A DNA stretch of 32,000 bases from Patescibacteria group bacterium (GCA_030549845.1 JAUQQN010000001.1:150001-182000); one strand, 5' to 3'. Positions 3,995-22,242 are shown, numbered from the stretch's first letter. Notes: a model not told the origin generated them from the sequence alone. Program-made: numbers and translations.

Positions 3995-4064
3995 TAGGAA
4001 GGGCTGCCGAGTTCGGAGACCTCCGGGGAGGTGACGGGCCCCCGGAGAAAGGCAGCCCTTCCTA
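3995..4064 (+). ncRNA. GC-rich long hairpin, candidate small structured RNA of unknown class
   Basis: A perfect 14-bp outer stem pairs 3995-4008 (taggaagggctgcc) with 4051-4064 (ggcagcccttccta). An inner 7-bp stem pairs 4022-4028 with 4040-4046. A TATAAT lies at 3976-3981 upstream and a terminator follows at 4075-4137. I could not match it to the SRP, RNase P, tmRNA or 6S consensus. Confidence 0.35.
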
Positions 4065-4074
4065 TGTTATATAT

Positions 4075-4362: not shown

Positions 4363-4394
4363 TAGAGCGGAAATCTAGAAGGAGGTGTTGGGTA

Positions 4395-4721
4395 ATGAGA
4401 CGTTTATTTTTATTTTTAATTTTCGCAACGGCGTTTGTCGGTGGCTGCGGAGGGGGACATAAGCCCCCCTCCGTTGAGACGTTGCCTCCGGCTCCAACCA
4501 CAAAGGTGGAGTCGGGGCCTATTGTGGGCTGGTGGTGGGTAACCATCACCAGCCATACGACCCCTTCCCGGATAGAAGTTATCCGGGAAGGGGTAACATT
4601 GTTTAATTTTTTAGAGACCCGGGAGGTCAAAATCGACCTCCCGGAGGGTAATTACCTCATCCGGGTGATATACCCGGATGGGGGCTCCTGGGAGGGAGAG
4701 CTGACTCTCCCTCCCAAATAG
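4395..4721 (+). CDS. Putative small lipoprotein (108 aa); coding status uncertain because the region is an array of GC hairpins
   Basis: A GGAGG lies 9 nt upstream of the ATG. The N-terminus MRRLFLFLIFATAFVGGC looks like a lipoprotein signal with a lipobox Cys. The C-terminal part (DLPEGNYLIRVIYPDGGSWEGEL) resembles a small beta-sandwich. Against coding: Arg is CGG and Pro is CCC/CCG, unlike the AT-rich codon choices of the neighbouring genes. The antisense frame is also open. Confidence 0.4.
   Translation: MRRLFLFLIFATAFVGGCGGGHKPPSVETLPPAPTTKVESGPIVGWWWVTITSHTTPSRIEVIREGVTLFNFLETREVKIDLPEGNYLIRVIYPDGGSWEGELTLPPK
4447..4716 (+). ncRNA. Array of seven consecutive GC-rich stem-loops (candidate structured RNA segment)
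   Basis: Stems read directly from the sequence, seven in total. 4447-4474: 10 bp. 4484-4518: 14 bp with 2 bulges. 4527-4554: 12 bp with a GTAA loop. 4560-4594: 15 bp perfect. 4619-4644: 10 bp perfect. 4655-4683: 12 bp. 4689-4716: 12 bp. Three G.T pairs (4491/4512, 4535/4546, 4657/4681) are wobble pairs only if the plus strand is the RNA. Confidence 0.45.
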
Positions 4722-4733
4722 TTTTTTCCACAG

Positions 4734-4759
4734 CCCCACCCTTTCGGGTGGGGTTTTTT
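4734..4759 (+). terminator. Rho-independent terminator
   Basis: CCCCACCC-tttc-GGGTGGGG followed by six T. Confidence 0.8.
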
Positions 4760-4779
4760 ATTCCACTTTTATTTGACTT

Positions 4780-4848: not shown

Positions 4849-7800
4849 TTATTCTATCCAAATATTAACTTTTCCAAAATTTTCATATTCGAATTCCCTT
4901 TCCAATTTAAATTTTTTAGAAACTCCAAATTTAAGGTTGCTTATATTTGTTTCTTTTTTAATTCTTAATAGATTTTTTGAAATAATGTTTTTTAGGTTTT
5001 TAGGCAATAACATGGAAACATTTATAGGAGTTATAGGGATTAATCCTAAATCTTGTCTTAAATCTTGAATATATCTTATAAAATCATTTACTATTCCTTC
5101 TTCTTTAAGCTCTGGTGTTATTTCTTTATTAAGCCAAACATAAATAGGAGAGTCTGCAAATAAATAGTTTTCTTTATTTTTAGGCTCTCCAATTATTACT
5201 TTTTTAACATTTACTTCTTCTTTGATAAGTTCCAAATATTCTTCTTCTATTTTTTCTCCTAAATAAACTTCTTTTAAGGGTTGCCTTACTTTTATTCCAT
5301 TATTTTTTCTTAGCATCAAAATTTCTGATGTTATTTCTCTTACTTTTTTCATTTCTTTAAGTATTTCTTTTTCTTTTGTTGACAAATCTTTAGGGGGTAA
5401 AACTTTTTCTAAATGAACACTTATTTCTACCTTTTTTCTATCTTTCATTTCATTTTTTATCTCATGATAAAGAAACTCACTAAAGAAAGGAGTTATTGGA
5501 GCAGAAATTTTTGCTATTTCAAAAAGATATTCTTCTAACTTCATCATAGCGATTTGTATTTCATTTTCATTTTTAGGTCTTTGGAACCTTCTTCTGCTCC
5601 TTCTTAGCCACCAATGAGATAAATCTTGAACTAAATTTACCAGTTCTCTACTTGCTTTTGTTGGATTGAAGTTATACAAAGATTCATAAACTATTTTATA
5701 AGCTTCTTTTAATCTCACATCAAACCATTTATCAATTATTTCTTTACTTTGATAATTTCTAATTTTTAATTTCTTTGGTTTTCTGTACATTCTATAAAAG
5801 TTAAAAATATTCAAAAGCAGATCAAAGTAATTTCTCTTTAGGTTTATAAGCTCTTCTTCTATGAATCTTTTATTATCAGCAGATTCACTTACATAAACAA
5901 AGTAAAACCTTAAAAGATCAGCTCCGTATTTTTCGATGGCCTCCATAGGATCTACAACGTTTCCCAATGACTTGGACATTTTTCTTCCCTCCTTATCTAA
6001 AACTAAGCCCAAAGAGACTACATTTTTGTAAGTTTCCATTTTCTTTATCAAATACCCTATAACTAACAAAGTATAAAACCAACCCCTTGTTTGATCTATT
6101 CCTTCCACAATAAAATCTATAGGGAATAAAATTCCTTCATCTATTTCTTTTTTATTTTCAAATGGATAATGAAAAGATGCAAAAGGAACACACCCTGAGT
6201 CAAACCAAATATCTGCTAAGTCTTCTATTCGTTCTTTTAATCCTCCACATTTACATTTCCATTTAAATTTATCCACATAAGGCCTATGAATATTTATTTC
6301 ATTATTTTCATCTCTTGGCAAAATTAAAAGTTCAATTTCTTTATATTCCCCAGGTTCGAAGTTAAATTCTTCATTTTCTGCTGTTTGTTTTTTAGAAAGC
6401 CCTTGCATTTCTCCACAAAGAGCCCATAAAGGATCCTGATGTGATACTATTAAGATTGTTTTTCCTTCATACTTTTCTTCCAAATCTAAAATTACTGATA
6501 TCATTCTTTTTCTTACATCATCCAAACTTTCACCATTTTCTGGGGCTTTGAAATACTGATCATATTGATCTTCATAAAGCTTATCATATTCTTTTATTGA
6601 TTTACCGTTTAATACACCAAAATCTATTTCTCTTAACCTTAGATCTACAATAATCGGAACTCGTAAAATATTAGAAAGTATTTCTGCAGTTTGCTTCGTT
6701 CTTAAAAGTGGTGAAGTTACAATAAAGTCGATATTCTTCTTCGCTAACTCTTTAGCCACCTTCATTATTTGTTTTTCTCCATTCGAGGTCAATGGGTTAA
6801 AGAAAACTTCAGGGTAGGAAGATAGTAATTCTTTTACATTACTTATGGCTTCTCCATGCCTTAAAAGAATGTATTTATTTTTTGATTTGAAATGTTGAGC
6901 AAGCTCCTTTAAACTCCCTATAACTTCTATTGAACCACAGCTATTACATTTCCATATAGGAAGAGGTATACCCCAAACCCTTGTTCTTGATAGATTCCAA
7001 TCTTTTCCTTCCTTAAGCCATTCATAAAATCTACCACTTCCAATTTCTTTTGGATACCAATTTATTTTTTCGTTAATTTTTAATAGCTTATCTTTAAATT
7101 TAGATACTTTAATCACCCAATTTTTTGTTGAATAATAAATAAGCGGTGTTTTACATCTCCAACAATGGGGATAATCGTGTTCATATCCAGTTAAATTTGC
7201 ATAGAGGATTAAATTTCTTTCTTTTAAGTCTTCAACAATATATGGATCTGCATCTTTAAAAAATAAATTATTTATTTTACTACTAATAAAAGCTGGTTCA
7301 TCAAAATTAAAAATTCCTGACTCGTTTATTGGATTTATTAGAGGAAGATTATATTTTTTACTTAATTCAAAATCCTCTTCACCAAATGCAGGAGCTATAT
7401 GAACTATTCCTGTACCTTCGTCTTCTTTTACGAATTCTGCTAAATAAACTTTAAATGCATTTTCATAATTTTCTATATTTTCTGGAGGATAAAGAGGTTC
7501 ATATTCTAAACCTTCTAGTTCTTTGCCTTTTATTTTTTTAATCTCTATTCCTTTAAATCCCTGAGGAAGCCTTAAAGATATTAGAATTTCTTCATTTAAG
7601 TCAAATACTTTATATTCATACTCTGGATGTATTGCTAAAGCTATATTTGAAATTAACGTCCATGGGGTTGTTGTCCAAACTAAGAAATAAATTTGTTTTT
7701 CAGAAAATTCTTCTAAAAAGTGTGGAATGTTTTTCAACTTAAACTTAACATAAATATCAGGATCTAAAACTTTTTTATAAGCATCAACTTGTCCTACTTC

Positions 7801-8355
7801 GGCTTGAGAAAGGACGGTTTCGCATCTTGGGCAATAAGGAAAAACTTTATATTCTTCTTTTAAGTACCCTTGATCATAAATCTTTTTAATAATCCACCAA
7901 CAGGATTCCATGTAAAATGGATCATAAGTGATATAAGCATTTTTATGATCAATCCAAAATCCCATCATTTCATCCATTTTCTCCCATTCATTTTTATATT
8001 TCATAACAAGCTCTTTACATTTTGCATTAAATTTATCAATTCCATATGAAAATATATCTTTTTTTGTTTTAAATCCTAAAAATTTTTCAGTGGCAACTTC
8101 TATAGGAAGTCCGTGCGTATCCCATCCTGCCCTTCTTTCAGCATATTCACCAATCATTGTTCTAAATCTTAAAATAATATCTTTATAAACTCGGGTAAGA
8201 AAATGCCCGATGTGAGGTTTATCATTAGCATACGGAGGACCTTCAACAAAAACAAATCTTTTATTTTTTATATTTCTTTTTAAGCTTTCTTTAAAAATAT
8301 TATTTGATTTCCAAAAATTTATTATTTTCTTTTCCAATTCACTTAGATTTAGCAT
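4849..8355 (-). CDS. ileS: Isoleucine--tRNA ligase with an inserted histidine-phosphatase-family domain
   Basis: 1168 aa. It has the HIGH motif (PHIGH), KMSKS, the editing-domain signature WTTTPWTL, and Cys clusters (CPRC, CWRC, WKCNSC, CKCGG). Residues about 491-686 carry RHG-phosphatase motifs (see findings). Confidence 0.93.
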   Translation of the reverse strand: MLNLSELEKKIINFWKSNNIFKESLKRNIKNKRFVFVEGPPYANDKPHIGHFLTRVYKDIILRFRTMIGEYAERRAGWDTHGLPIEVATEKFLGFKTKKDIFSYGIDKFNAKCKELVMKYKNEWEKMDEMMGFWIDHKNAYITYDPFYMESCWWIIKKIYDQGYLKEEYKVFPYCPRCETVLSQAEVGQVDAYKKVLDPDIYVKFKLKNIPHFLEEFSEKQIYFLVWTTTPWTLISNIALAIHPEYEYKVFDLNEEILISLRLPQGFKGIEIKKIKGKELEGLEYEPLYPPENIENYENAFKVYLAEFVKEDEGTGIVHIAPAFGEEDFELSKKYNLPLINPINESGIFNFDEPAFISSKINNLFFKDADPYIVEDLKERNLILYANLTGYEHDYPHCWRCKTPLIYYSTKNWVIKVSKFKDKLLKINEKINWYPKEIGSGRFYEWLKEGKDWNLSRTRVWGIPLPIWKCNSCGSIEVIGSLKELAQHFKSKNKYILLRHGEAISNVKELLSSYPEVFFNPLTSNGEKQIMKVAKELAKKNIDFIVTSPLLRTKQTAEILSNILRVPIIVDLRLREIDFGVLNGKSIKEYDKLYEDQYDQYFKAPENGESLDDVRKRMISVILDLEEKYEGKTILIVSHQDPLWALCGEMQGLSKKQTAENEEFNFEPGEYKEIELLILPRDENNEINIHRPYVDKFKWKCKCGGLKERIEDLADIWFDSGCVPFASFHYPFENKKEIDEGILFPIDFIVEGIDQTRGWFYTLLVIGYLIKKMETYKNVVSLGLVLDKEGRKMSKSLGNVVDPMEAIEKYGADLLRFYFVYVSESADNKRFIEEELINLKRNYFDLLLNIFNFYRMYRKPKKLKIRNYQSKEIIDKWFDVRLKEAYKIVYESLYNFNPTKASRELVNLVQDLSHWWLRRSRRRFQRPKNENEIQIAMMKLEEYLFEIAKISAPITPFFSEFLYHEIKNEMKDRKKVEISVHLEKVLPPKDLSTKEKEILKEMKKVREITSEILMLRKNNGIKVRQPLKEVYLGEKIEEEYLELIKEEVNVKKVIIGEPKNKENYLFADSPIYVWLNKEITPELKEEGIVNDFIRYIQDLRQDLGLIPITPINVSMLLPKNLKNIISKNLLRIKKETNISNLKFGVSKKFKLEREFEYENFGKVNIWIE

Positions 8356-8836
8356 TTTTATAATTCTTTATAGCTTTCTCTATTAATTTTTCTGCTTCTT
8401 CTTTGTTTAACCAATCTTTTATCTTTACCCACTTACCTGGTTCTAATGTTTTGTAATTTTCAAAAAAGTGTTTAATTTGATTTTTATAATTTTCTGGAAT
8501 TTCACTTATATCATTATACATCCCCCAAAAAGGATCTATTTTTTCTTTTGGAACTGCTATTACTTTTTCATCTTTTCCAGCCTCGTCTTCCATTTCTAAA
8601 ACTCCTATTGGTTTTACTCTAATCAAACTACCTGGCAATATACTTTCATAAGATAATATTAAAACATCTACTGGGTCTCCATCATCTGCTAAAGTTTCTT
8701 CTATAAATCCATAATTGAAAGGATAATACATTGCTGTATATAGAAATCTATCAACTCTTATTCTATTTTTTTCTTTATCTAACTCATATTTAACATTGCT
8801 CCCCTTTGAAATTTCAATTAAAACATCTATTTCCAT
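8339..8836 (-). CDS. ppa: Inorganic pyrophosphatase, family I
   Basis: 165 aa. It has YPFNYGFIEETL and DGDPVDVLIL, the canonical family I PPase acidic motifs. It lies 2 nt downstream of nusA and overlaps the ileS start by 17 nt. Confidence 0.9.
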   Translation of the reverse strand: MEIDVLIEISKGSNVKYELDKEKNRIRVDRFLYTAMYYPFNYGFIEETLADDGDPVDVLILSYESILPGSLIRVKPIGVLEMEDEAGKDEKVIAVPKEKIDPFWGMYNDISEIPENYKNQIKHFFENYKTLEPGKWVKIKDWLNKEEAEKLIEKAIKNYKNAKSK

Positions 8837-8838
8837 TT

Positions 8839-9999
8839 TTAGTTTTCACCTGAAGATTCACTAATTACGGAATCTTCAGGGTTACTTTTTATATCTATTT
8901 CTTCTATATCTGCTATTCCTCCTTCTATTTCTTTTTCTGGTTCTTCTATTAATCTTACATCTATTCTCCATCCAGTTAATTTTGAGGCTAATTTTATGTT
9001 TTGTCCATTTTTTCCTAAAGCCACAGGTAATTGATCTTCGGTTACATAAAGCTTAATTGTTCTTTTTGGCAAAATTTCTCCACTTACAACCTTTGCTGGA
9101 GAAAGAGCATTCATCACATACTGAAGTGGATCATCAGAATATTCTATTATGTCTATTTTTTCTCCATTCAACTCATTAGAAATACTTAAAACTCTTGCGC
9201 CCTTAGGGCCTATACAGGCACCAACAGGATCAATTCCTTGAACATTTGATTTTACAGCTAACTTACTTCTTACACCAGGAATTCTTGCGACTCCTTTAAT
9301 TTCTATTATTCCTTCTATTATCTCTGGAATTTCAAAAGAAAAAAGTGCTGAAACAAAAAGAGGATTTGCTCTTGAAAGATATACTTCAACTAACCCTGGT
9401 TTTTTCTCAACGCCATAAACATAAAACCTCATTCTATTTCCAATCTTATAGAATTCGTTAGGAATTGCTTCTGTTTTAAACATTATTCCTAAGGCCTTAA
9501 CTAAATCAACATATACAGCTCTACTATCTATTTTTTGTATAGTACCAGAAACTATTTTCCCTTCTTTTTCCTTAAATTCATTGTATATATTTTCTTTTGT
9601 AATCTCTCTAACTTTTTGAATAATTATTTGCTTTGCTGTTTGGGCAGCAATTCTACTAAACGCATCTTTATATTCGAGCGGCATTCTTATTTCATCTCCT
9701 GGCTTAGAATTTGGGTTAATTTTTTGAGCTTCTGAAAGCAAGATATGTTTATATGGGTTAAATTTGACTACTTGATTTTCTACATCTTTATCATCAACTA
9801 CTGTTTTAACTAAATAAAATTCTATCCTTTTACCAGTAGGATCAATTTTTCCTTCAACTTTTTCTTCTTTGTGCCTATAATCTTTTTTATAAGCAGCAGC
9901 TAAGGCACTTGCTAAAATTTCTTTGACCTGATTTTCATCTAAATCTCTTTCTTCAACTATTTGATCTATTAAGCTTTCTAATTGTTTAATATTTATCAT
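8839..9999 (-). CDS. nusA: Transcription termination/antitermination factor NusA
   Basis: 386 aa. The N-terminal domain (LASALAAAYKK), an S1-like region (GKIVSGTIQKID...VYVDL) and two KH regions (GACIGPKGARV, ALGKNGQNIKLASKLTGWRIDV) are present. Confidence 0.9.
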   Translation of the reverse strand: MINIKQLESLIDQIVEERDLDENQVKEILASALAAAYKKDYRHKEEKVEGKIDPTGKRIEFYLVKTVVDDKDVENQVVKFNPYKHILLSEAQKINPNSKPGDEIRMPLEYKDAFSRIAAQTAKQIIIQKVREITKENIYNEFKEKEGKIVSGTIQKIDSRAVYVDLVKALGIMFKTEAIPNEFYKIGNRMRFYVYGVEKKPGLVEVYLSRANPLFVSALFSFEIPEIIEGIIEIKGVARIPGVRSKLAVKSNVQGIDPVGACIGPKGARVLSISNELNGEKIDIIEYSDDPLQYVMNALSPAKVVSGEILPKRTIKLYVTEDQLPVALGKNGQNIKLASKLTGWRIDVRLIEEPEKEIEGGIADIEEIDIKSNPEDSVISESSGEN

Positions 10000-11608: not shown

Positions 11609-11642
11609 AAAACAAATAGTTCCGTACGGAATTATTTGTTTT
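11609..11642. terminator. Palindromic A-arm/T-arm element, copy 2; 3' of tsaD and overlapping its stop codon
   Basis: aaaacaaatagttccgtacggaattatttgtttt forms a 15-bp stem (one G.T) around a gtac loop. It is a near-identical inverted copy of 4780-4810. Confidence 0.55.
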
Positions 11643-12678
11643 ATATTGTAGTTATTGGATTTATGTCGAGTTTTTCAGGTTCAAGGGCTTTTTCTATGAA
11701 AAAATAGCTAGCAAAGGCTATGTTAATTCCATTATCTGTAGAAAGTTCTTTTAATGGGAAGTAAATTTTCTTATTTTTGAAGAATTTTAAAAACATTTTT
11801 CTTAAAGTTAAATTAGATATTACTCCTCCTGTAACTATTATGCTTTTAACGCTATATCTATCTAATGCTTTTTTTACTTTAATTATTAAAGTCTCAAAGG
11901 CTGCTTTTTGATAAGAATTAGCTAAATCAGCTTTTGCTTCTTCTAATTTGTTTAATCTTCTAACTTCTTCTACTAATTCCCAAAATGCTGTTTTTAATCC
12001 GGCAAAACTAAAATTAAAATTTGCTTGATTAACCATAGGTCTTGGTAAGTTAAAAAGTGGTTTCCCTTTTTTTGCTAATTTTTCTAATTTAGGCCCGCCA
12101 GGATATTCTAAACCTAAAATTCTTGCAGCTTTATCCAAACTTTCTCCAATTGCATCATCTAATGTTTCACCTAATTTTTTAAATTTTTCAAAGCTTTCAA
12201 AATGCACTAAAATTGTATGCCCTCCAGAAATTAATAAACCAATTGCAGGAAATTCTATTTTTCTAACTTTTTGCCATATGTTTAACTTATTTTTAGAGAT
12301 TAAAATAGAATAAAAATGAGCTAATAAATGATTTACAGGAATTATTTTTTTATCATATCTCTTTGCTAATCTTACAACAAATTCTTTACCTTCAACTAAG
12401 GCAGGAGGTAAGCCTGGCCCATATGAAAAAGCAAAATAATCAACATCTTTCAGGTTAATTTTTGTTTCTTTTATCAAATTATCTAAAAGAATTGGTAAAT
12501 TTTTCTTATGTTCTCTTGCAGCTAAAATAGGAACAATTCCACCATACTTTGAATGAACTTCTACTTGGGTTCTTAACTTATGAGCTAAAATTTTAAATTC
12601 AAGTTTTTTATTTTCTTTAAATTCTATTAAGGAAATACCTGTTTCATCACAAGTTGTTTCAAATCCTAAAATTTTCAT
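11641..12678 (-). CDS. tsaD: tRNA N6-adenosine threonylcarbamoyltransferase TsaD (Kae1/Qri7 family)
   Basis: 345 aa. It has ILGFETTCDETG, the metal-binding VNHLLAH, and LLISGGHT. Confidence 0.9.
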   Translation of the reverse strand: MKILGFETTCDETGISLIEFKENKKLEFKILAHKLRTQVEVHSKYGGIVPILAAREHKKNLPILLDNLIKETKINLKDVDYFAFSYGPGLPPALVEGKEFVVRLAKRYDKKIIPVNHLLAHFYSILISKNKLNIWQKVRKIEFPAIGLLISGGHTILVHFESFEKFKKLGETLDDAIGESLDKAARILGLEYPGGPKLEKLAKKGKPLFNLPRPMVNQANFNFSFAGLKTAFWELVEEVRRLNKLEEAKADLANSYQKAAFETLIIKVKKALDRYSVKSIIVTGGVISNLTLRKMFLKFFKNKKIYFPLKELSTDNGINIAFASYFFIEKALEPEKLDINPITTI

Positions 12679-16506: not shown

Positions 16507-16790
16507 TACTTAAAGAAAGAAATTAGGATAGCTTGAATAGAAAAGGATGCGATTATTAACACTAATCCTACAATAATTAGTGGAACTTCTTCTTTAAATC
16601 CTTTCCCTGGATTTACCATATATTTAAAGCCAGAATACATTAAAATACCTATACCACTTACCATTCCTATCCAATAAAAAATATTAATTACTCCAATGAG
16701 TTTACAAATAAAATAATTTATGCCTTCTTGCTGAGCACAACCTATTTCCCCTCTAAACCTAATTGCTTGGGCAAAAACTAAGCTTATCAT
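16506..16790 (-). CDS. Small two-TM protein, VirB2/TrbC-type pilin-like
   Basis: 94 aa. The layout is helix (IFYWIGMVSGIGILMYSGFKYM), loop (NPGKGFKEE), helix (VPLIIVGLVLIIASF). It has a 4-nt ATGA overlap with the upstream gene. Confidence 0.55.
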   Translation of the reverse strand: MISLVFAQAIRFRGEIGCAQQEGINYFICKLIGVINIFYWIGMVSGIGILMYSGFKYMVNPGKGFKEEVPLIIVGLVLIIASFSIQAILISFFK

Positions 16791-18439
16791 AAACCTAATA
16801 TTTGCTTAATGATATTCCAACCACTACCTCCAGGTGTATAAATTTTCCCTGTTTCTATATCGAAGACTTGACTAAACGGCTTATCTGGAAATTCTGAATT
16901 TGTAATTTCAACTTCACATTGGCCTTTATAATCATAAAATTGAATATATAAAAATCCTAATGTATTACCTGGAGGAGAAATATATTTAGGAACTCTATAT
17001 AGAGATTTTCCCTTTTCATAACTCAAGGTTATTTGGAAATCTCTGTTAAACAGGTATAAAGAAGTTGCCTTTGTTTTATCAAAATTAAAACTTGAAACAC
17101 TTGTTCCCCTCATAACCCCATATAATGTACAATTCCCATTTTTTTTAGGAGTAGGTTGAACTTCATATTCTATATACATTGAAAAAGGAGGTTGATATAT
17201 ATTCCTTTGCAAAACTGTGATTCCTAATAACTGCTCTAAAGCATCTTTCAAGTTATCGGGCATTTCTACCCTTATATATTGAGAAGCATAAATTATAAGT
17301 TTGTCTCCTTTTATTGTTAATTTTGGTAGCTCCTCAACAACAACTTCAACTTTTGGTCGATATTGAATATCAAGATAGGTAATATTCAAATTACAGTTAT
17401 TTGATTGGAATGCAACTCTTACAAAATCACCTGGCTCAATATGGTTCCCTAGCTCAGCTTCTATATATTGGGAACCAAAAATATTAGGTTCTATTTTTGA
17501 AAACAAATTTTTACCTTTTGTTTTATTGTAAAAAGTAAGCGTTAATTCACATGTATCCTTAGAAGAAACAAAAACAAAAAATCTTCCATTTTCATCTATT
17601 TTTGCAGTATTTGTATCTATTATTAGAGTACCAGAAGCAGTGCCACTAGGTAAAATAGATTGAGTAGTATCTGGAATGGGTTGAGTAATATCTGGAATAG
17701 GTTGAGCAGTGTCTGTAGTAATTGGACCTAGTTCAGAAGGTGGTTGTAATGCTAAACCACCTGTTAACCATCTTTCTACTCCAATAACAATCGTAAATGA
17801 AACAATTCCTACTACAATACCTATTATCCCCCATTGGACTCTTTTATGAACATCACTAACTTGGCTAGGTTTTGTAATATATAAAATGCCAGCCCACATT
17901 AAAAACAAAACCCCTAAAGCTAGAGATAAGGTATATAATATCCTTAAGCCTTTATCAAAAAGAAACAACAAACATTGACCAATTCCTCTTTCGCATTCAC
18001 GAATAGTAGGAAATCCTCTTAGATATTCTGATGGAGCTATATATAATTTTTCCAGCTGACCATTTTCTATTTGTACATTCAATACTTTAAATCCTCGGTA
18101 TTGTTGTAAACTAGGAGGTGGATCTATTAAAATTAATTCTGCTGCCTCTATTATTAAGTTACTCCAATTTCCGTAAGTCTCTCTAACTGCATCATTGACA
18201 TTTATGTTAGGATCTGTACTTTCAATGCTATTACCTCTAACCTCGAATGTTCCTTCACCATATCTATTATTCAAAAGCTCAGCCATTTTTTCTCTTATCA
18301 AACGCCTTAAACCTTCATCTACATTTATTCCCTGCACTGTCTTTATGCCCCATTGAAAAGGATTAAAATATTGAGTAACTTGAGCAAAAGTGATATTACT
18401 GAATATTAGCAAAATAACTAAAAGTAAAATTTTTTTCAT
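16787..18439 (-). CDS. Large surface protein: signal peptide, N-terminal domain, internal pilin-like two-TM module, PIPD repeats and a C-terminal extracellular domain
   Basis: 550 aa. It has a signal peptide (MKKILLLVILLIFSNITFA). An internal module (LRILYTLSLALGVLFLMWAGILYITKP...RVQWGIIGIVVGIVSFTIV) is similar to the neighbouring pilin-like proteins. A repeat AQPIPDI/TQPIPDT/TQSILPS follows, then about 290 aa rich in beta-strand-type residues. Confidence 0.6.
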   Translation of the reverse strand: MKKILLLVILLIFSNITFAQVTQYFNPFQWGIKTVQGINVDEGLRRLIREKMAELLNNRYGEGTFEVRGNSIESTDPNINVNDAVRETYGNWSNLIIEAAELILIDPPPSLQQYRGFKVLNVQIENGQLEKLYIAPSEYLRGFPTIRECERGIGQCLLFLFDKGLRILYTLSLALGVLFLMWAGILYITKPSQVSDVHKRVQWGIIGIVVGIVSFTIVIGVERWLTGGLALQPPSELGPITTDTAQPIPDITQPIPDTTQSILPSGTASGTLIIDTNTAKIDENGRFFVFVSSKDTCELTLTFYNKTKGKNLFSKIEPNIFGSQYIEAELGNHIEPGDFVRVAFQSNNCNLNITYLDIQYRPKVEVVVEELPKLTIKGDKLIIYASQYIRVEMPDNLKDALEQLLGITVLQRNIYQPPFSMYIEYEVQPTPKKNGNCTLYGVMRGTSVSSFNFDKTKATSLYLFNRDFQITLSYEKGKSLYRVPKYISPPGNTLGFLYIQFYDYKGQCEVEITNSEFPDKPFSQVFDIETGKIYTPGGSGWNIIKQILGL

Positions 18440-18440
18440 T

Positions 18441-19094
18441 TTAATGAGTTAAACTAAATTCAATTGCTTTAACAATTGAAAAAGCAGCAACTGTAAAAAT
18501 TGCTCCGATTATTGCCCAAGTAATATAATTCCAACCTTCTCTATCGCCTGGTTTTAAATATAACTTCATTCCTCCATAAATTATAAAACCTATTGCTGAA
18601 AGCATAGATACAGTATACAGAACTGTTAAAATTTTAGTAATAAACCAAAGAAAGCATCTTCCTAATAAGCCAGGTGGGGTAGGTTTTCCTCCTAAGATAT
18701 CAAAAATATTTATTCCTGTGCAATTAATTCTCGGAGGTTGAAAACTTAATTGTTGAGCATAAGCTATATTAAATATAAAATCTATTCTCCAATTAGAGAC
18801 CGTATATTCAATAAGTTTAACTAATCCCCAAGAAATTAAAGCTAAAGCTAAACCTAAAGAAGCCCAAATTAATCTATTCTTTACATCTTGTTGTGCTTTT
18901 TGGGCTTGAACTATAAGAATTATTCCTGCCCACATAATCATAATTACAGCCAATGCACCAGAAAGCCATGTCAAAATTTTTAATGCAACATAAAAAACTA
19001 ATAAAGCACAAGAAGTTAAATCTTGGCAAATAACTGGAACAGGAAAAATTCTATTGCTAAATATCCCAAAATCTGGATTAAATGGATAAGGCAT
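18441..19094 (-). CDS. Tandem-duplicated VirB2/TrbC-type pilin-like protein (two two-TM modules)
   Basis: 217 aa. Module 1 is LKILTWLSGALAVIMIMWAGIILIV...NRLIWASLGLALALISWGLVKLIE. Module 2 is TKILTVLYTVSMLSAIGFIIYGGMKLY...WNYITWAIIGAIFTVAAFSIVKAIE. Confidence 0.65.
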   Translation of the reverse strand: MPYPFNPDFGIFSNRIFPVPVICQDLTSCALLVFYVALKILTWLSGALAVIMIMWAGIILIVQAQKAQQDVKNRLIWASLGLALALISWGLVKLIEYTVSNWRIDFIFNIAYAQQLSFQPPRINCTGINIFDILGGKPTPPGLLGRCFLWFITKILTVLYTVSMLSAIGFIIYGGMKLYLKPGDREGWNYITWAIIGAIFTVAAFSIVKAIEFSLTH

Positions 19095-19114
19095 TCAATT
19101 TATTTTTATTATTT

Positions 19115-19495
19115 TTAAAATCCAGGCTGTCCTGTAACTACAAGATTTTCTACAAACTTAACTACAGCCCAAGCAAGTAATGCTATAGCCAAACCAGCTG
19201 CTCCGTATATCAACCTATTTTTACCTTCATCAATTTTTGCTTGGATTATAACTTGTATTCCTCCCCAAATTATGTATATAACTGCAAAAGCACCTGCTGC
19301 CCACATTAGAATTCTTAAAACCCATGTAAAGACTTGTAAAAGAACTTCACCTAGAGTTCTTCCTTGTAAAAAACCAGATTCTGGTGGTAGTTCGCGTATA
19401 GGCCATTCTCCTCCTTGCCCATAAACTAAGCCAAGGTTTCCTAAAAATAAGATTAATAGTAAAATTGCACTTAATCTAAGGGTTTTTTTACTCAT
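19115..19495 (-). CDS. VirB2/TrbC-type pilin-like protein with signal peptide
   Basis: 126 aa. It has a signal peptide (LSAILLLILFLGNLGLVYGQ). The module is LRILMWAAGAFAVIYIIWGGIQVI...GKNRLIYGAAGLAIALLAWAVVKFVE. Confidence 0.7.
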   Translation of the reverse strand: MSKKTLRLSAILLLILFLGNLGLVYGQGGEWPIRELPPESGFLQGRTLGEVLLQVFTWVLRILMWAAGAFAVIYIIWGGIQVIIQAKIDEGKNRLIYGAAGLAIALLAWAVVKFVENLVVTGQPGF

Positions 19496-21105: not shown

Positions 21106-21114
21106 TTGTATTTG

Positions 21115-22242
21115 ATGATAATTTTGAAAGAAAGAAATTTAATTAGAAAAAATAAAAACTTGATAAAAGATAAAAAAATTTTGTTAAGAGTTGATTATAA
21201 TGTCGAAATAAAAAAGGGAAAGATACTAGATGACTATAGAATAAAAGAAAGCCTGGAAACTATAAGATTTCTCCAAAAAAATAAAGCAAAGCAAATAATA
21301 TTAATTACTCATTTTGGAAGACCTAAAAAGCAAGAAAGGGAATTTTCAATAAGAAAATTATTACCTTTTTTAAAAAGAATATTTAAAAATATCAAATATT
21401 TTTATTGGCGTCCTGGTTTGAATGTGCCAGAATATCCTTTGATTATTTTAGAAAATATAAGGTTTTTTAAAGAAGAAGAAAGAAATGATGAAAAATTTGC
21501 AAAAGAGCTAAGCAAATTAGGAGATTTGTACATAAATGATGCCTTTTCTACAAGCCATCGAAAACATGCATCTTTAGATAAAATTAAAAAATTCATTCCT
21601 TATTATTTTGGTTTAAATTTTGAAAAAGAAATCAATAATCTAAATTTAGTTTTTGAATTTTTTAAAAAAAATAAAAGTGTAGGTGTTGTTATTGGAGGAA
21701 TAAAATTTGAAACAAAAATAAAATTAATAGAAAAATTTTTAGAAAAGGCTGAATTAATTATTTTGGTAGGTGGCCTTGCTAATACATTTTTAAAAGCTAA
21801 AGGCTTTGAAGTAGGTTCTTCGATATTTGATGAAGAATATTTAAATTACATAAAAAAATTTTATTCTTCTAAGTTATTATTACCTTTTGATTTTATAACT
21901 CAAAGAGGGCATTTGTATTTAGGAGAAATTAAAGGAACTGATATTATTTATGACACAGGTTATATAAGCATAAACATATTTCTAGAAGAGTTGAAGAAAG
22001 TAAAACTTGTAATATGGAATGGCCCATTGGGGAAAATAGAAAAAAAAGAATATAAAAAAGGCAGCCTAACCTTTGCCAAAGGTTTAAAGGAGATTAATAA
22101 CAAAAAAATAATTGGAGGAGGAGAAACTTTATCAATAGCAAATAAAATTTTTAAAAATGATAAAAATACATTTTTATCAACCGGAGGAGGTGCTATGCTT
22201 TATTATTTGGCAAATGGTAATTTACCGATATTTGAAAAATAA
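21115..22242 (+). CDS. pgk: Phosphoglycerate kinase
   Basis: The track ORF begins at the TTG at 21106; the first ATG is at 21115. It has LLRVDYNV, ITHFGRPK, LENIRFF..EE, NDAFSTSHR, and STGGGAML near the C-terminus. Confidence 0.88.
   Translation: MIILKERNLIRKNKNLIKDKKILLRVDYNVEIKKGKILDDYRIKESLETIRFLQKNKAKQIILITHFGRPKKQEREFSIRKLLPFLKRIFKNIKYFYWRPGLNVPEYPLIILENIRFFKEEERNDEKFAKELSKLGDLYINDAFSTSHRKHASLDKIKKFIPYYFGLNFEKEINNLNLVFEFFKKNKSVGVVIGGIKFETKIKLIEKFLEKAELIILVGGLANTFLKAKGFEVGSSIFDEEYLNYIKKFYSSKLLLPFDFITQRGHLYLGEIKGTDIIYDTGYISINIFLEELKKVKLVIWNGPLGKIEKKEYKKGSLTFAKGLKEINNKKIIGGGETLSIANKIFKNDKNTFLSTGGGAMLYYLANGNLPIFEK

Follow-up and report, generated by a model that had tools for sequence, protein, structure and literature searches.

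A histidine phosphatase domain nested in the isoleucyl-tRNA synthetase of Parcubacteria

The stretch of DNA that was analysed, referred to below as the window, comprises 32,000 nucleotides from a Patescibacteria group bacterium (GCA_030549845.1 JAUQQN010000001.1:150001-182000) and is AT-rich, with a GC content of about 27%. On its minus strand, a single uninterrupted open reading frame (ORF), designated ileS::HP, encodes a protein of 1168 amino acid residues in which a histidine phosphatase (HP) domain is nested inside a type-2 isoleucyl-tRNA synthetase (IleRS). It is very probable that the product combines two enzymes in one polypeptide, each with its catalytic set intact, that the insert is orthologous to the product of a stand-alone gene of related bacteria, and that the inserted and the free-standing states exclude each other at any one locus. 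The original prediction, made from the sequence of the window alone, had located the insert at residues 491-686 (positions 6298-6885) and had described the flanking synthetase motifs as intact. The coordinates and every motif quoted there were confirmed, and HIGH, WTTTPWT and KMSKS are all present. The features of the gene are as follows.

4849..8355, minus strand: ileS::HP, single uninterrupted ORF of 1168 residues, type-2 IleRS with nested HP
6886..8355, minus strand: IleRS residues 1-490, with the first half of the Rossmann fold, the CP core zinc motif, CP1, CP2, the linker and the first CP3 half-knuckle
6298..6885, minus strand: HP insert, residues 491-686, branch-1 histidine phosphatase, exact coordinate mapping
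4849..6297, minus strand: IleRS residues 687-1168 and the stop codon, with the second Rossmann half, the anticodon-binding domain and the type-2 C-terminal domains (DUF5915)
8203-8214, minus strand: HIGH, residues 48-51
7822-7833, minus strand: CPRC, CP core zinc motif
7657-7677, minus strand: WTTTPWT of the CP1 editing domain, residues 227-233
7153-7164, minus strand: CWRC, CP core zinc motif
6970-7002, minus strand: DWNLSRTRVWG, the CP2-CP3 linker, residues 452-462
6937-6948, minus strand: CNSC, first CP3 half-knuckle
6853..6861, minus strand: RHG, with R499 and the nucleophile H500; R and H invariant in 121 of 121 insert-bearing IleRSs
6700..6702, minus strand: R552, second phosphate-binding Arg (SPLLRTKQTA), in 119 of 121
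6628..6630, minus strand: E576, probable general acid (LREIDFG), Glu in 100 and Asp in 21 of 121
6439..6441, minus strand: H639, second catalytic His (VSHQ), in 121 of 121
6277-6288, minus strand: HRPY
6247-6255, minus strand: CKC, second CP3 half-knuckle
6193-6207, minus strand: WFDSG
5968-5982, minus strand: KMSKS, residues 792-796

The insert proved to be a complete histidine phosphatase domain, as had been proposed, since profile, motifs and predicted fold agree. A Pfam scan of the 1168-residue protein, one of the checks suggested with the original prediction, placed His_Phos_1 between two stretches of tRNA-synt_1 and also found Anticodon_1 and DUF5915. His_Phos_1 (PF00300) covers residues 496-657 with an E-value of 5.7e-39 and a score of 134.2 bits, the gathering threshold being 21.7. 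The insert contains LLRHGE (RHG at 499-501), SPLLRTKQTAE, LREIDFG, PENGES (608-610) and VSHQDPL, and the catalytic residues are conserved in 119-121 of 121 orthologous inserts, the acid being E or D. R552 is also invariant in a broad alignment of 38 HP sequences (A2), and the free-standing HP enzymes in this alignment show the same pattern of catalytic residues. The catalytic acid is probably E576 of LREIDFG, as judged from the alignment of this residue with the Glu of REIHLG in PhoE, which we take from the literature on PhoE and cofactor-dependent phosphoglycerate mutase (dPGM) to be the proton donor. The GES glutamate does not serve as the acid. The glycine of RHG is variable (G in 82, C in 26 and others in 13 of the 121 sequences; G, C, A or T), and the subsequent Asn occurs in 74 of 121. 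Variants with RHA are known in the histidine phosphatase superfamily (PMC3866925).

The AlphaFold2 model of the full-length protein, built with 68 homologues, has a predicted local distance difference test (pLDDT) value of 92 and a predicted template modelling (pTM) score of 0.85. The insert reaches 94-98 in each block of ten residues, with no low-confidence linkers. Modelled alone, the HP domain has a pLDDT of 95.8 and a pTM of 0.92; in the model it is a domain that folds autonomously, which answers the question of independent folding raised with the original prediction. In a Foldseek search with the domain model, PhoE (1H2E) was the best match, with a template modelling (TM) score of 0.79 and a root-mean-square deviation (rmsd) of 2.9 Å. 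Other near folds, at an rmsd of 2.3-2.9 Å, were a mycobacterial hydrolase (6S2Q), PspA (4IJ5/4IJ6), Rv2419c (4QIH) and HFP (9MMH), and CobC (6E4B) came next at 3.4 Å. Judged by sequence and model, the insert is a PhoE-like histidine phosphatase with a complete fold and the full catalytic set R499, H500, R552, E576 and H639. The nested enzyme is apparently active, and a mutase identity is unlikely.

The synthetase around the insert is intact. The NCBIfam model of ileS (TIGR00392) gave 825.2 bits against a cut-off of 621.4, with the match split in two by the insert. The C-terminal part (Anticodon_1 and DUF5915) has the type-2 organisation, in which the anticodon-binding domain is followed by ARD2/ARD3 and a C-terminal zinc-binding domain is lacking, and the best Foldseek match was IleRS2 of P. 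megaterium. Among 68 homologues, H51 of HIGH and K792, S794, K795 and S796 of KMSKS are invariant and M793 is nearly so; H48 of HIGH appears in neither of the two conservation lists. WTTTPWT at 227-233 and D328 of the CP1 editing domain are invariant, little or no variation is seen at C175, C178, C398 and C401 of the CP core, and the CP1 region matches the structures of the T. thermophilus (Tt) IleRS editing domain 1WK8 and 1UE0. The scores for the GNAT-containing IleRS family (NF040702, 293 bits with a cut-off of 1999) and for the mupirocin-resistance enzymes MupA and MupB (NF000257 and NF000258, 624 and 690 with a cut-off of 1900) lie below the cut-offs. By these motifs the body is a canonical type-2 IleRS, with intact elements for synthesis, editing and anticodon binding. 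In a comparison of the window with four relatives, the ratio of nonsynonymous to synonymous substitution rates (dN/dS) was 0.09-0.24 for the body and equal, at 0.08-0.23, for the insert, values that are rough, dS being near saturation. The insert and the synthetase body are both under purifying selection. The intact motifs and the dN/dS of the body suggest that the protein forms Ile-tRNA(Ile).

The site of insertion is a surface loop located at the tip of CP3, the subdomain with the zinc knuckle. The name of this zinc-binding subdomain follows the nomenclature of Chung et al., and the CP3 of Tt IleRS bears a zinc motif (PMC7191050). The alignment with Tt IleRS (1ILE) breaks at Tt residue 477 and restarts at 489, which means that about 11 residues are swapped for about 200. 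The insert falls between the halves of the Tt knuckle Cys461/464...Cys502/504, whose equivalents in the window are C470/C473 and C701/C703. The topology of the CP3 zinc knuckle varies among IleRSs, and the zinc site is dispensable (PMC7191050). Insert-bearing IleRSs with CP3 devoid of all four knuckle cysteines, and with HP kept, were observed in loci L040, L043, L056, L074 and L080 (e.g., PIWKDPKGEV...QLEKDGQPLTR). This indicates that the zinc site is not required to hold the insert. The linker that immediately precedes CP3 in yeast IleRS (ARDWNVSRNRYWG) lines the pocket that takes up the CCA end of the tRNA (PMC7955072). Its counterpart in the window is DWNLSRTRVWG at 452-462, and the insert starts about 30 residues after it.

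A survey of IleRS homologues, which had been suggested with the original prediction, found the insertion in all of the closest ones. Both PF00133 and PF00300 were present in each of the best 120 full-length homologues (identity 99-42%, length 1017-1249 residues). These sequences came from NCBI, ENA, JGI and Logan, under names that include Patescibacteria, Parcubacteria, Minisyncoccia and Sungiibacteriota. In a phmmer search against 1.84 billion cluster representatives, 91 of the best 150 matches carried the insert, and the first insert-free IleRS appeared at rank 21. The representatives stand for clusters at 50% identity, so at least 91 such clusters in the Parcubacteria group possess the insert. 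The divergence of insert-bearing proteins was sampled down to 36% identity, and the insert was kept in every descendant sampled. In public annotation these proteins are plainly an 'isoleucyl-tRNA synthetase' or a 'class I tRNA ligase'. Four sources together provide over 100 independent assemblies with the same architecture. Together with the conserved residues, the dN/dS values and the confident model, these assemblies bear out the earlier view of a functional fusion rather than a pseudogene or an assembly artefact.

Several of the sequences collected deserve separate mention. On a 22-kb JGI contig (L001, 6286-9124), frameshifts split ileS::HP into four or more ORFs; this exception reflects either a pseudogene or homopolymer sequencing errors. 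Two contigs of 1.3-1.4 kb (L005 and L006) carry a fragment of ileS::HP with an HP 84% identical to that of the window. They belong to metagenome-assembled genomes labelled Elusimicrobia and Caldimicrobium, probably through mis-binning. In the same assembly series, many 'Saccharibacteria' labels likewise look generic.

The search with the insert and its flanks showed that the nearest HP relatives are stand-alone proteins of Patescibacteria, 187-192 residues long and about 50% identical to the insert. They align with it from end to end, the first residues being MKLNNKYY.LRHGEA and the last GELRELN, and a subfamily-specific loop after RHG, SS(W/Y)PExFxNPLT, is common to the inserted and the stand-alone HP. 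The genomic position of these genes was followed in a scan of 80 loci, with one genome per GTDB species, limited to sequences with LRHGEAxSN[VA] or [WY]PExFxNPLT. The scan used a tight alignment (A3), as the broad 38-sequence alignment A2 had no stretch conserved enough. HP was found inside ileS in 36 of the 80 loci, in one ORF of about 1136-1235 residues where the gene was complete, and as a gene of its own in 43 (ORF of 188-237 residues from stop to stop, order argS-HP-ileS); one locus ends at a contig edge. Free-standing and inserted HP occurred together at none of the 80 loci.

In the free type, HP is located directly upstream of an insert-free ileS, on the same strand and usually at a distance of less than 100 nt, and argS lies directly upstream of HP. 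In many loci of the inserted type, ileS is abutted by argS, which leaves no room for a separate HP gene. Most of the named free-type genomes are Staskawiczbacteria, and among those of the inserted type are Paceibacter, KatS3mg Parcubacteria and Yanofsky-, Colwell-, Lloyd-, Wildermuth- and Nomurabacteria. A taxonomy look-up placed Staskawiczbacteria and Yanofskybacteria in the Parcubacteria group and Paceibacter in Minisyncoccota. As far as sequence similarity can tell, the insert is the orthologue of the stand-alone phosphatase of about 190 residues encoded between argS and ileS in sister Parcubacteria. Besides, the free-type loci (L002-L083) contain at least three very different types of IleRS CP3 (…WLDAGI, …TWFDSGS and …CWVESAS) in the same gene block, and the HP genes of these classes intermix in the tree, a pattern that may point to ileS having been replaced in situ or to recombination within the cluster. 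In locus L002, toxin-antitoxin genes sit between HP and ileS.

The neighbour-joining (NJ) tree of the HP domain keeps the inserted and the free states apart, with 1 of 70 sequences misplaced, and this topology fits a single relocation event. The NJ tree of the IleRS body, in which the two types are interleaved (10 of 70 misplaced), clashes with such a simple history and has to be counted against it. When the NJ tree was rooted with PhoE, the free clade was nested among the inserted sequences in 75 of 100 bootstraps. The direction implied by this rooting is not trusted, because the outgroup is very distant, the inserted branches are long and the tree of the IleRS body conflicts with it. The insert may have originated in a local rearrangement that shifted the HP coding sequence, in either direction, between a position just upstream of ileS and a position inside CP3.

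The same HP subfamily also occurs in a second fusion, with the Sua5/TsaC protein. The genes are as follows.

L085, 658-1800: Sua5/YrdC-HP fusion gene
L086, 828-2009: Sua5/YrdC-HP fusion gene
L087, 1615-2946: Sua5/YrdC-HP fusion gene
L088, 1-1257: Sua5/YrdC-HP fusion gene

Sua5/TsaC, like IleRS, makes an acyl-adenylate and pyrophosphate, acting as a synthase of threonylcarbamoyl-adenosine monophosphate, and serves the N6-threonylcarbamoyladenosine (t6A) modification at position 37 of ANN-decoding tRNAs, including tRNA-Ile. In the fusions, HP is placed at the C-terminus of the YrdC domain and replaces the usual C-terminal SUA5 domain. The fusions P0003, P0026, L087 and L088 share about 45% identity with one another. 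The gene in L086 abuts the 3' end of ileS, and that in L088 is located 1.5 kb from genes for the CCA-adding enzyme, TGT and queuosine salvage. The last two, L087 and L088, both come from the metagenome scan and from one sampling site, and over the HP domain their tblastn matches were identical. A search for further fusions with the HP half as the query returned only two stand-alone proteins, and no description of the Sua5-HP architecture was found in the literature.

The explanation that we favour is a nested phosphatase in IleRS with a substrate from the tRNA-charging sphere. In this explanation, the IleRS part would charge tRNA-Ile in the usual way, and HP would hydrolyse a phosphomonoester through a phospho-His500 intermediate. 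The high confidence of the model suggests that HP would be firmly mounted, about 30 residues past the CP2-CP3 linker lining the CCA pocket. The substrate might be a tRNA 3' end that carries a 2'/3'-phosphate or pyrophosphate and is not aminoacylatable, or a nucleotide by-product such as adenosine monophosphate; this is the weakest step of the proposal. A substrate related to tRNA charging is favoured because the same HP subfamily is independently fused to Sua5/TsaC and recurs among tRNA genes. The coupling is further supported by the free-standing orthologue, which adjoins ileS. Pyrophosphorylation of the tRNA 3'-CCA end is a documented threat that blocks charging (10.1101/2021.04.30.441581; PMC11559606).

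The probability of the favoured explanation as a whole is put at about even. A functional tie of HP to tRNA charging, taken by itself, is proposed tentatively and falls slightly short of an even chance, and any single named substrate is unlikely. A more specific reading joins the inserted, free and Sua5-fused orthologues as a synthetase-associated phosphatase that would keep tRNA chargeable by removing 2'/3'-phosphate or pyrophosphate at CCA ends near the entrance of the IleRS active site, the phosphates being installed by toxSAS-type or RNA-damaging effectors. It is considered rather improbable.

Several observations weigh against a coupling to tRNA charging. No NCBIfam equivalog threshold is reached by the insert (for instance, CobC TIGR03162 gives 95.4 with a cut-off of 162.9 and PspA NF045917 gives 87.6 with a cut-off of 350), and homology therefore gives no basis for assigning a substrate. 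The nearest characterised relatives of HP all act on small metabolites, not RNA, and a role in tRNA-end repair leaves the restriction to IleRS unexplained. The Sua5-HP fusions are few, namely three distinct sequences plus L087 and L088. A synteny control showed that in free-type loci the entire block L20-IF3-smpB-pyrH-argS-HP-ileS-recO is kept whole, in 24-28 of 28 loci. The pair recO-ileS is as conserved as HP-ileS; the adjacency alone is thus no argument for coupling, and proximity alone could explain how HP got into ileS. Adjacency to ileS, which had been taken as strong evidence of coupling, was downgraded on account of this block-wide synteny; it explains the origin of the insert better than it proves coupling. 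In genomes of the inserted type, the flanks have diverged (4/16).

The same synteny of smpB, pyrH, recO, IF3 and L20 agrees with an alternative history, in which a housekeeping small-molecule phosphatase encoded next door fell into a permissive CP3 loop, the two active sites work independently and both activities are needed. The closest relatives in sequence and structure, PhoE, PspA, Rv2419c, CobC and HFP, are metabolite phosphatases, as this history would have it, and the insert occupies the tip of a peripheral, topologically variable knuckle with dispensable zinc (PMC7191050) and with cysteines lost in some proteins. However, a second, independent fusion joined HP to an adenylate-forming enzyme of a tRNA pathway, Sua5, with one fusion gene adjoining ileS. 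The retention of the insert in every sampled descendant and the firm, ordered mount suggested by the model, which does not resemble a floppy tether, also speak against a capture by mere proximity. On this evidence a chance capture is possible and has to be taken seriously, though it is on the whole doubtful.

Another possibility is that the insert represents a hidden phosphoglycerate mutase (PGM) of Parcubacteria, a short archaeal dPGM-like mutase for the step between 3-phosphoglycerate and 2-phosphoglycerate that was missed by surveys with hidden Markov models. An apparent absence of PGM in some Parcubacteria was noted by Jaffe et al.; a pgk gene is present in the window at 21106-22242, and the best NCBIfam match of the insert is archaeal dPGM (NF038349). 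Nevertheless, this match is below the cut-off (118.8 with 225 required), as is that of TIGR01258 (38.4 with 81.7 required), and structures of dPGM and bisphosphoglycerate mutase align poorly with the HP domain (rmsd 4.3-8 Å, TMt 0.55-0.65) in comparison with small phosphatases. Besides, the catalytic Glu and His stand in the contexts E-I-D-F and H-Q-D and are not followed by the Arg, Tyr and Asn that presumably bind the second phosphate or the carboxylate in dPGM. A hidden mutase is very unlikely.

More unlikely still is a protein phosphatase that guards IleRS (e.g., near KMSKS) or other translation proteins from HipA-/Doc-like kinase toxins. The superfamily includes protein phosphatases (PGAM5, Sts-1), and HipA-type toxins phosphorylate aminoacyl-tRNA synthetases; the physical integration of HP in the catalytic domain and the toxin-antitoxin genes of L002 agree with such a role. 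But the affinity of HP to PGAM5, Sts and SixA is not above that to small-molecule phosphatases in either sequence or structure, and none of the present data indicates phosphorylation of IleRS. It is barely credible that HP is a non-catalytic module that only binds phosphate or tRNA or serves as a scaffold. Such a module would account for the variability of the Gly of RHG and of the following Asn, but not for the presence of the nucleophilic His, both Arg, the second His and the acid in 119-121 of 121 sequences, which goes beyond the needs of binding, or for the same pattern in the free-standing enzymes. An assembly chimera, a pseudogene or an intein-like mobile insertion, of which the frameshift-broken gene in L001 might remind one, is already refuted by the single clean ORF, the more than 100 independent assemblies, the purifying selection and the nature of the insert as an enzyme domain without intein or transposase features (Pfam, NCBIfam).

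The neighbourhood of ileS::HP in the window includes two further genes related to these subjects.

8339..8836, minus strand: ppa, family I inorganic pyrophosphatase (PF00719, E-value 2e-61), with the 3' end overlapping the start of ileS by 17 nt
11641-12678, minus strand: tsaD, t6A37 threonylcarbamoyltransferase, 3.3 kb from ileS::HP

The gene nusA is located just upstream of ppa (8339-9999 region). The 17-nt overlap makes it probable that ppa and ileS belong to the same operon, the order of which is probably nusA-ppa-ileS. The pyrophosphatase gene is also directly upstream of ileS::HP in the closest relatives of the window (L007-L012), and in most other Parcubacteria this place is taken by argS. 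The proximity of tsaD is of note only because in other lineages the HP subfamily is fused to Sua5/TsaC, which performs the preceding step of t6A synthesis.

The remaining part of the window contains several features of a different kind. A GC-rich hairpin of about 75 nt was detected at 3995-4067, just downstream of dprA (57% GC against 27% in the genome), with a minimum free energy of -47.6 kcal/mol and z = -6.2 on either strand. It gave no Rfam, tRNA or tmRNA match, and the GC-rich stretch downstream of ileS yielded no credible RNA family with Rfam and ARAGORN. The hairpin may be a small structured RNA or else a terminator that acts in both directions; its loop sequence bears only a vague resemblance to the RNA of the signal recognition particle. 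A small putative lipoprotein gene was found at 4396-4760 (ATG at 4396, Shine-Dalgarno sequence aggagg at 4380, predicted signal peptide MRRLFLFLIFATAFVGGC, 53-56% GC), followed by a typical intrinsic terminator at about 4731-4760. Its GC content is foreign to the surroundings at 27%, which suggests a recent horizontal acquisition between dprA and ileS. At 18441-19495 on the minus strand, two adjacent genes resembling pilins of type IV secretion systems (PF18895) stand beside an ORF of 550 residues (16787-18439), for which Pfam gave no match.

Few enzymes are as conserved as the aminoacyl-tRNA synthetases. Here, a complete and selectively maintained phosphatase is located in CP3 of the sole IleRS seen at the locus, across a very large uncultured clade of ultra-small bacteria. 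The operon neighbour, the insert and the Sua5 fusion show domain nesting 'before and after' in nature, which is rarely possible, and the free enzyme of Staskawiczbacteria-type genomes and the nested one offer an experimental contrast. If HP is coupled to charging, it would represent a new accessory activity of translation in bacteria from the candidate phyla radiation. If the tRNA-repair reading is true, HP would be the first case of an enzyme for repair or counter-defence that lies inside an aminoacyl-tRNA synthetase. If HP is not coupled to charging, the case shows that in streamlined genomes a neighbouring gene can be accommodated, and become fixed, within an essential enzyme, and it warns that metabolic surveys may miss enzymes hidden in proteins named only 'isoleucyl-tRNA synthetase'.

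The original prediction had also stated that such an architecture was not known to have been described. This view stands insofar as no description of a nested phosphatase-IleRS was found in open-access full text; the architecture is nevertheless no peculiarity of the window, as it extends to at least 91 clusters at 50% identity. No phosphatase is mentioned in the text of the AARS Online paper or in the table of synthetase domain superfamilies that it contains (PMC11580382). Neither a phosphatase nor Patescibacteria appear in a survey of 96,219 IleRS architectures from 2026, and the literature search on the GNAT-IleRS precedent found nothing relevant.

Among the known systems, the closest to the synthetase part are T. 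thermophilus IleRS (1ILE) and P. megaterium IleRS2 (8C8U/8C8V), which have the same order of HIGH, zinc CP core, CP1, CP2, CP3, KMSKS, anticodon-binding domain and type-2 C-terminus. The comparison with 1ILE gave a phmmer E-value of 4e-216 and a Foldseek TMt of 0.91, and that with 8C8V a TMt of 0.81. The solved IleRSs have nothing comparable at the loop of about 11 residues (Tt 477-489), where the window protein carries an enzyme domain of 196 residues. The best sequence match of the insert is PhoE/YhfR of B. stearothermophilus (1EBB, 1H2E; E-value 4e-17), an enzyme of the class of about 200 residues with the same set R-H...R...E...H. PhoE reportedly is a broad-specificity phosphatase of the dPGM-like branch of the superfamily. 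However, the insert is only 27-28% identical to it and belongs to a subfamily of its own, with the extended SS(W/Y)PExFxNPLT loop and a location in or beside ileS. PspA (4IJ5), Rv2419c (4QIH), CobC (6E4B/6NRU) and Aquifex HFP (9MMH) share the fold and the core (TM 0.71-0.80, rmsd 2.3-3.4 Å); the first three are phosphatases of phosphoserine, glucosyl-3-phosphoglycerate and alpha-ribazole-5'-phosphate, respectively.

The CP1 editing domain of IleRS, ValRS and LeuRS is also a hydrolytic domain nested in the Rossmann fold, but it is universal and acts on the product of its own enzyme. The editing domain aside, whole enzymes nested in the catalytic Rossmann fold of an aminoacyl-tRNA synthetase are, to our knowledge, essentially unheard of. 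GNAT-IleRS (NF040702) likewise combines IleRS with an extra enzyme, albeit of a different kind, and the window protein lies outside that family. In RNase H/acid phosphatase of the Rv2228c type (NF005567), a CobC/PhoE-like domain is fused end to end with another partner; the insert scores 100 bits with a cut-off of 326. It seems that synthetases with accessory catalytic domains are known as such, and that the new element is a phosphatase nested in a synthetase, together with the triad of its free, nested and Sua5-fused forms.

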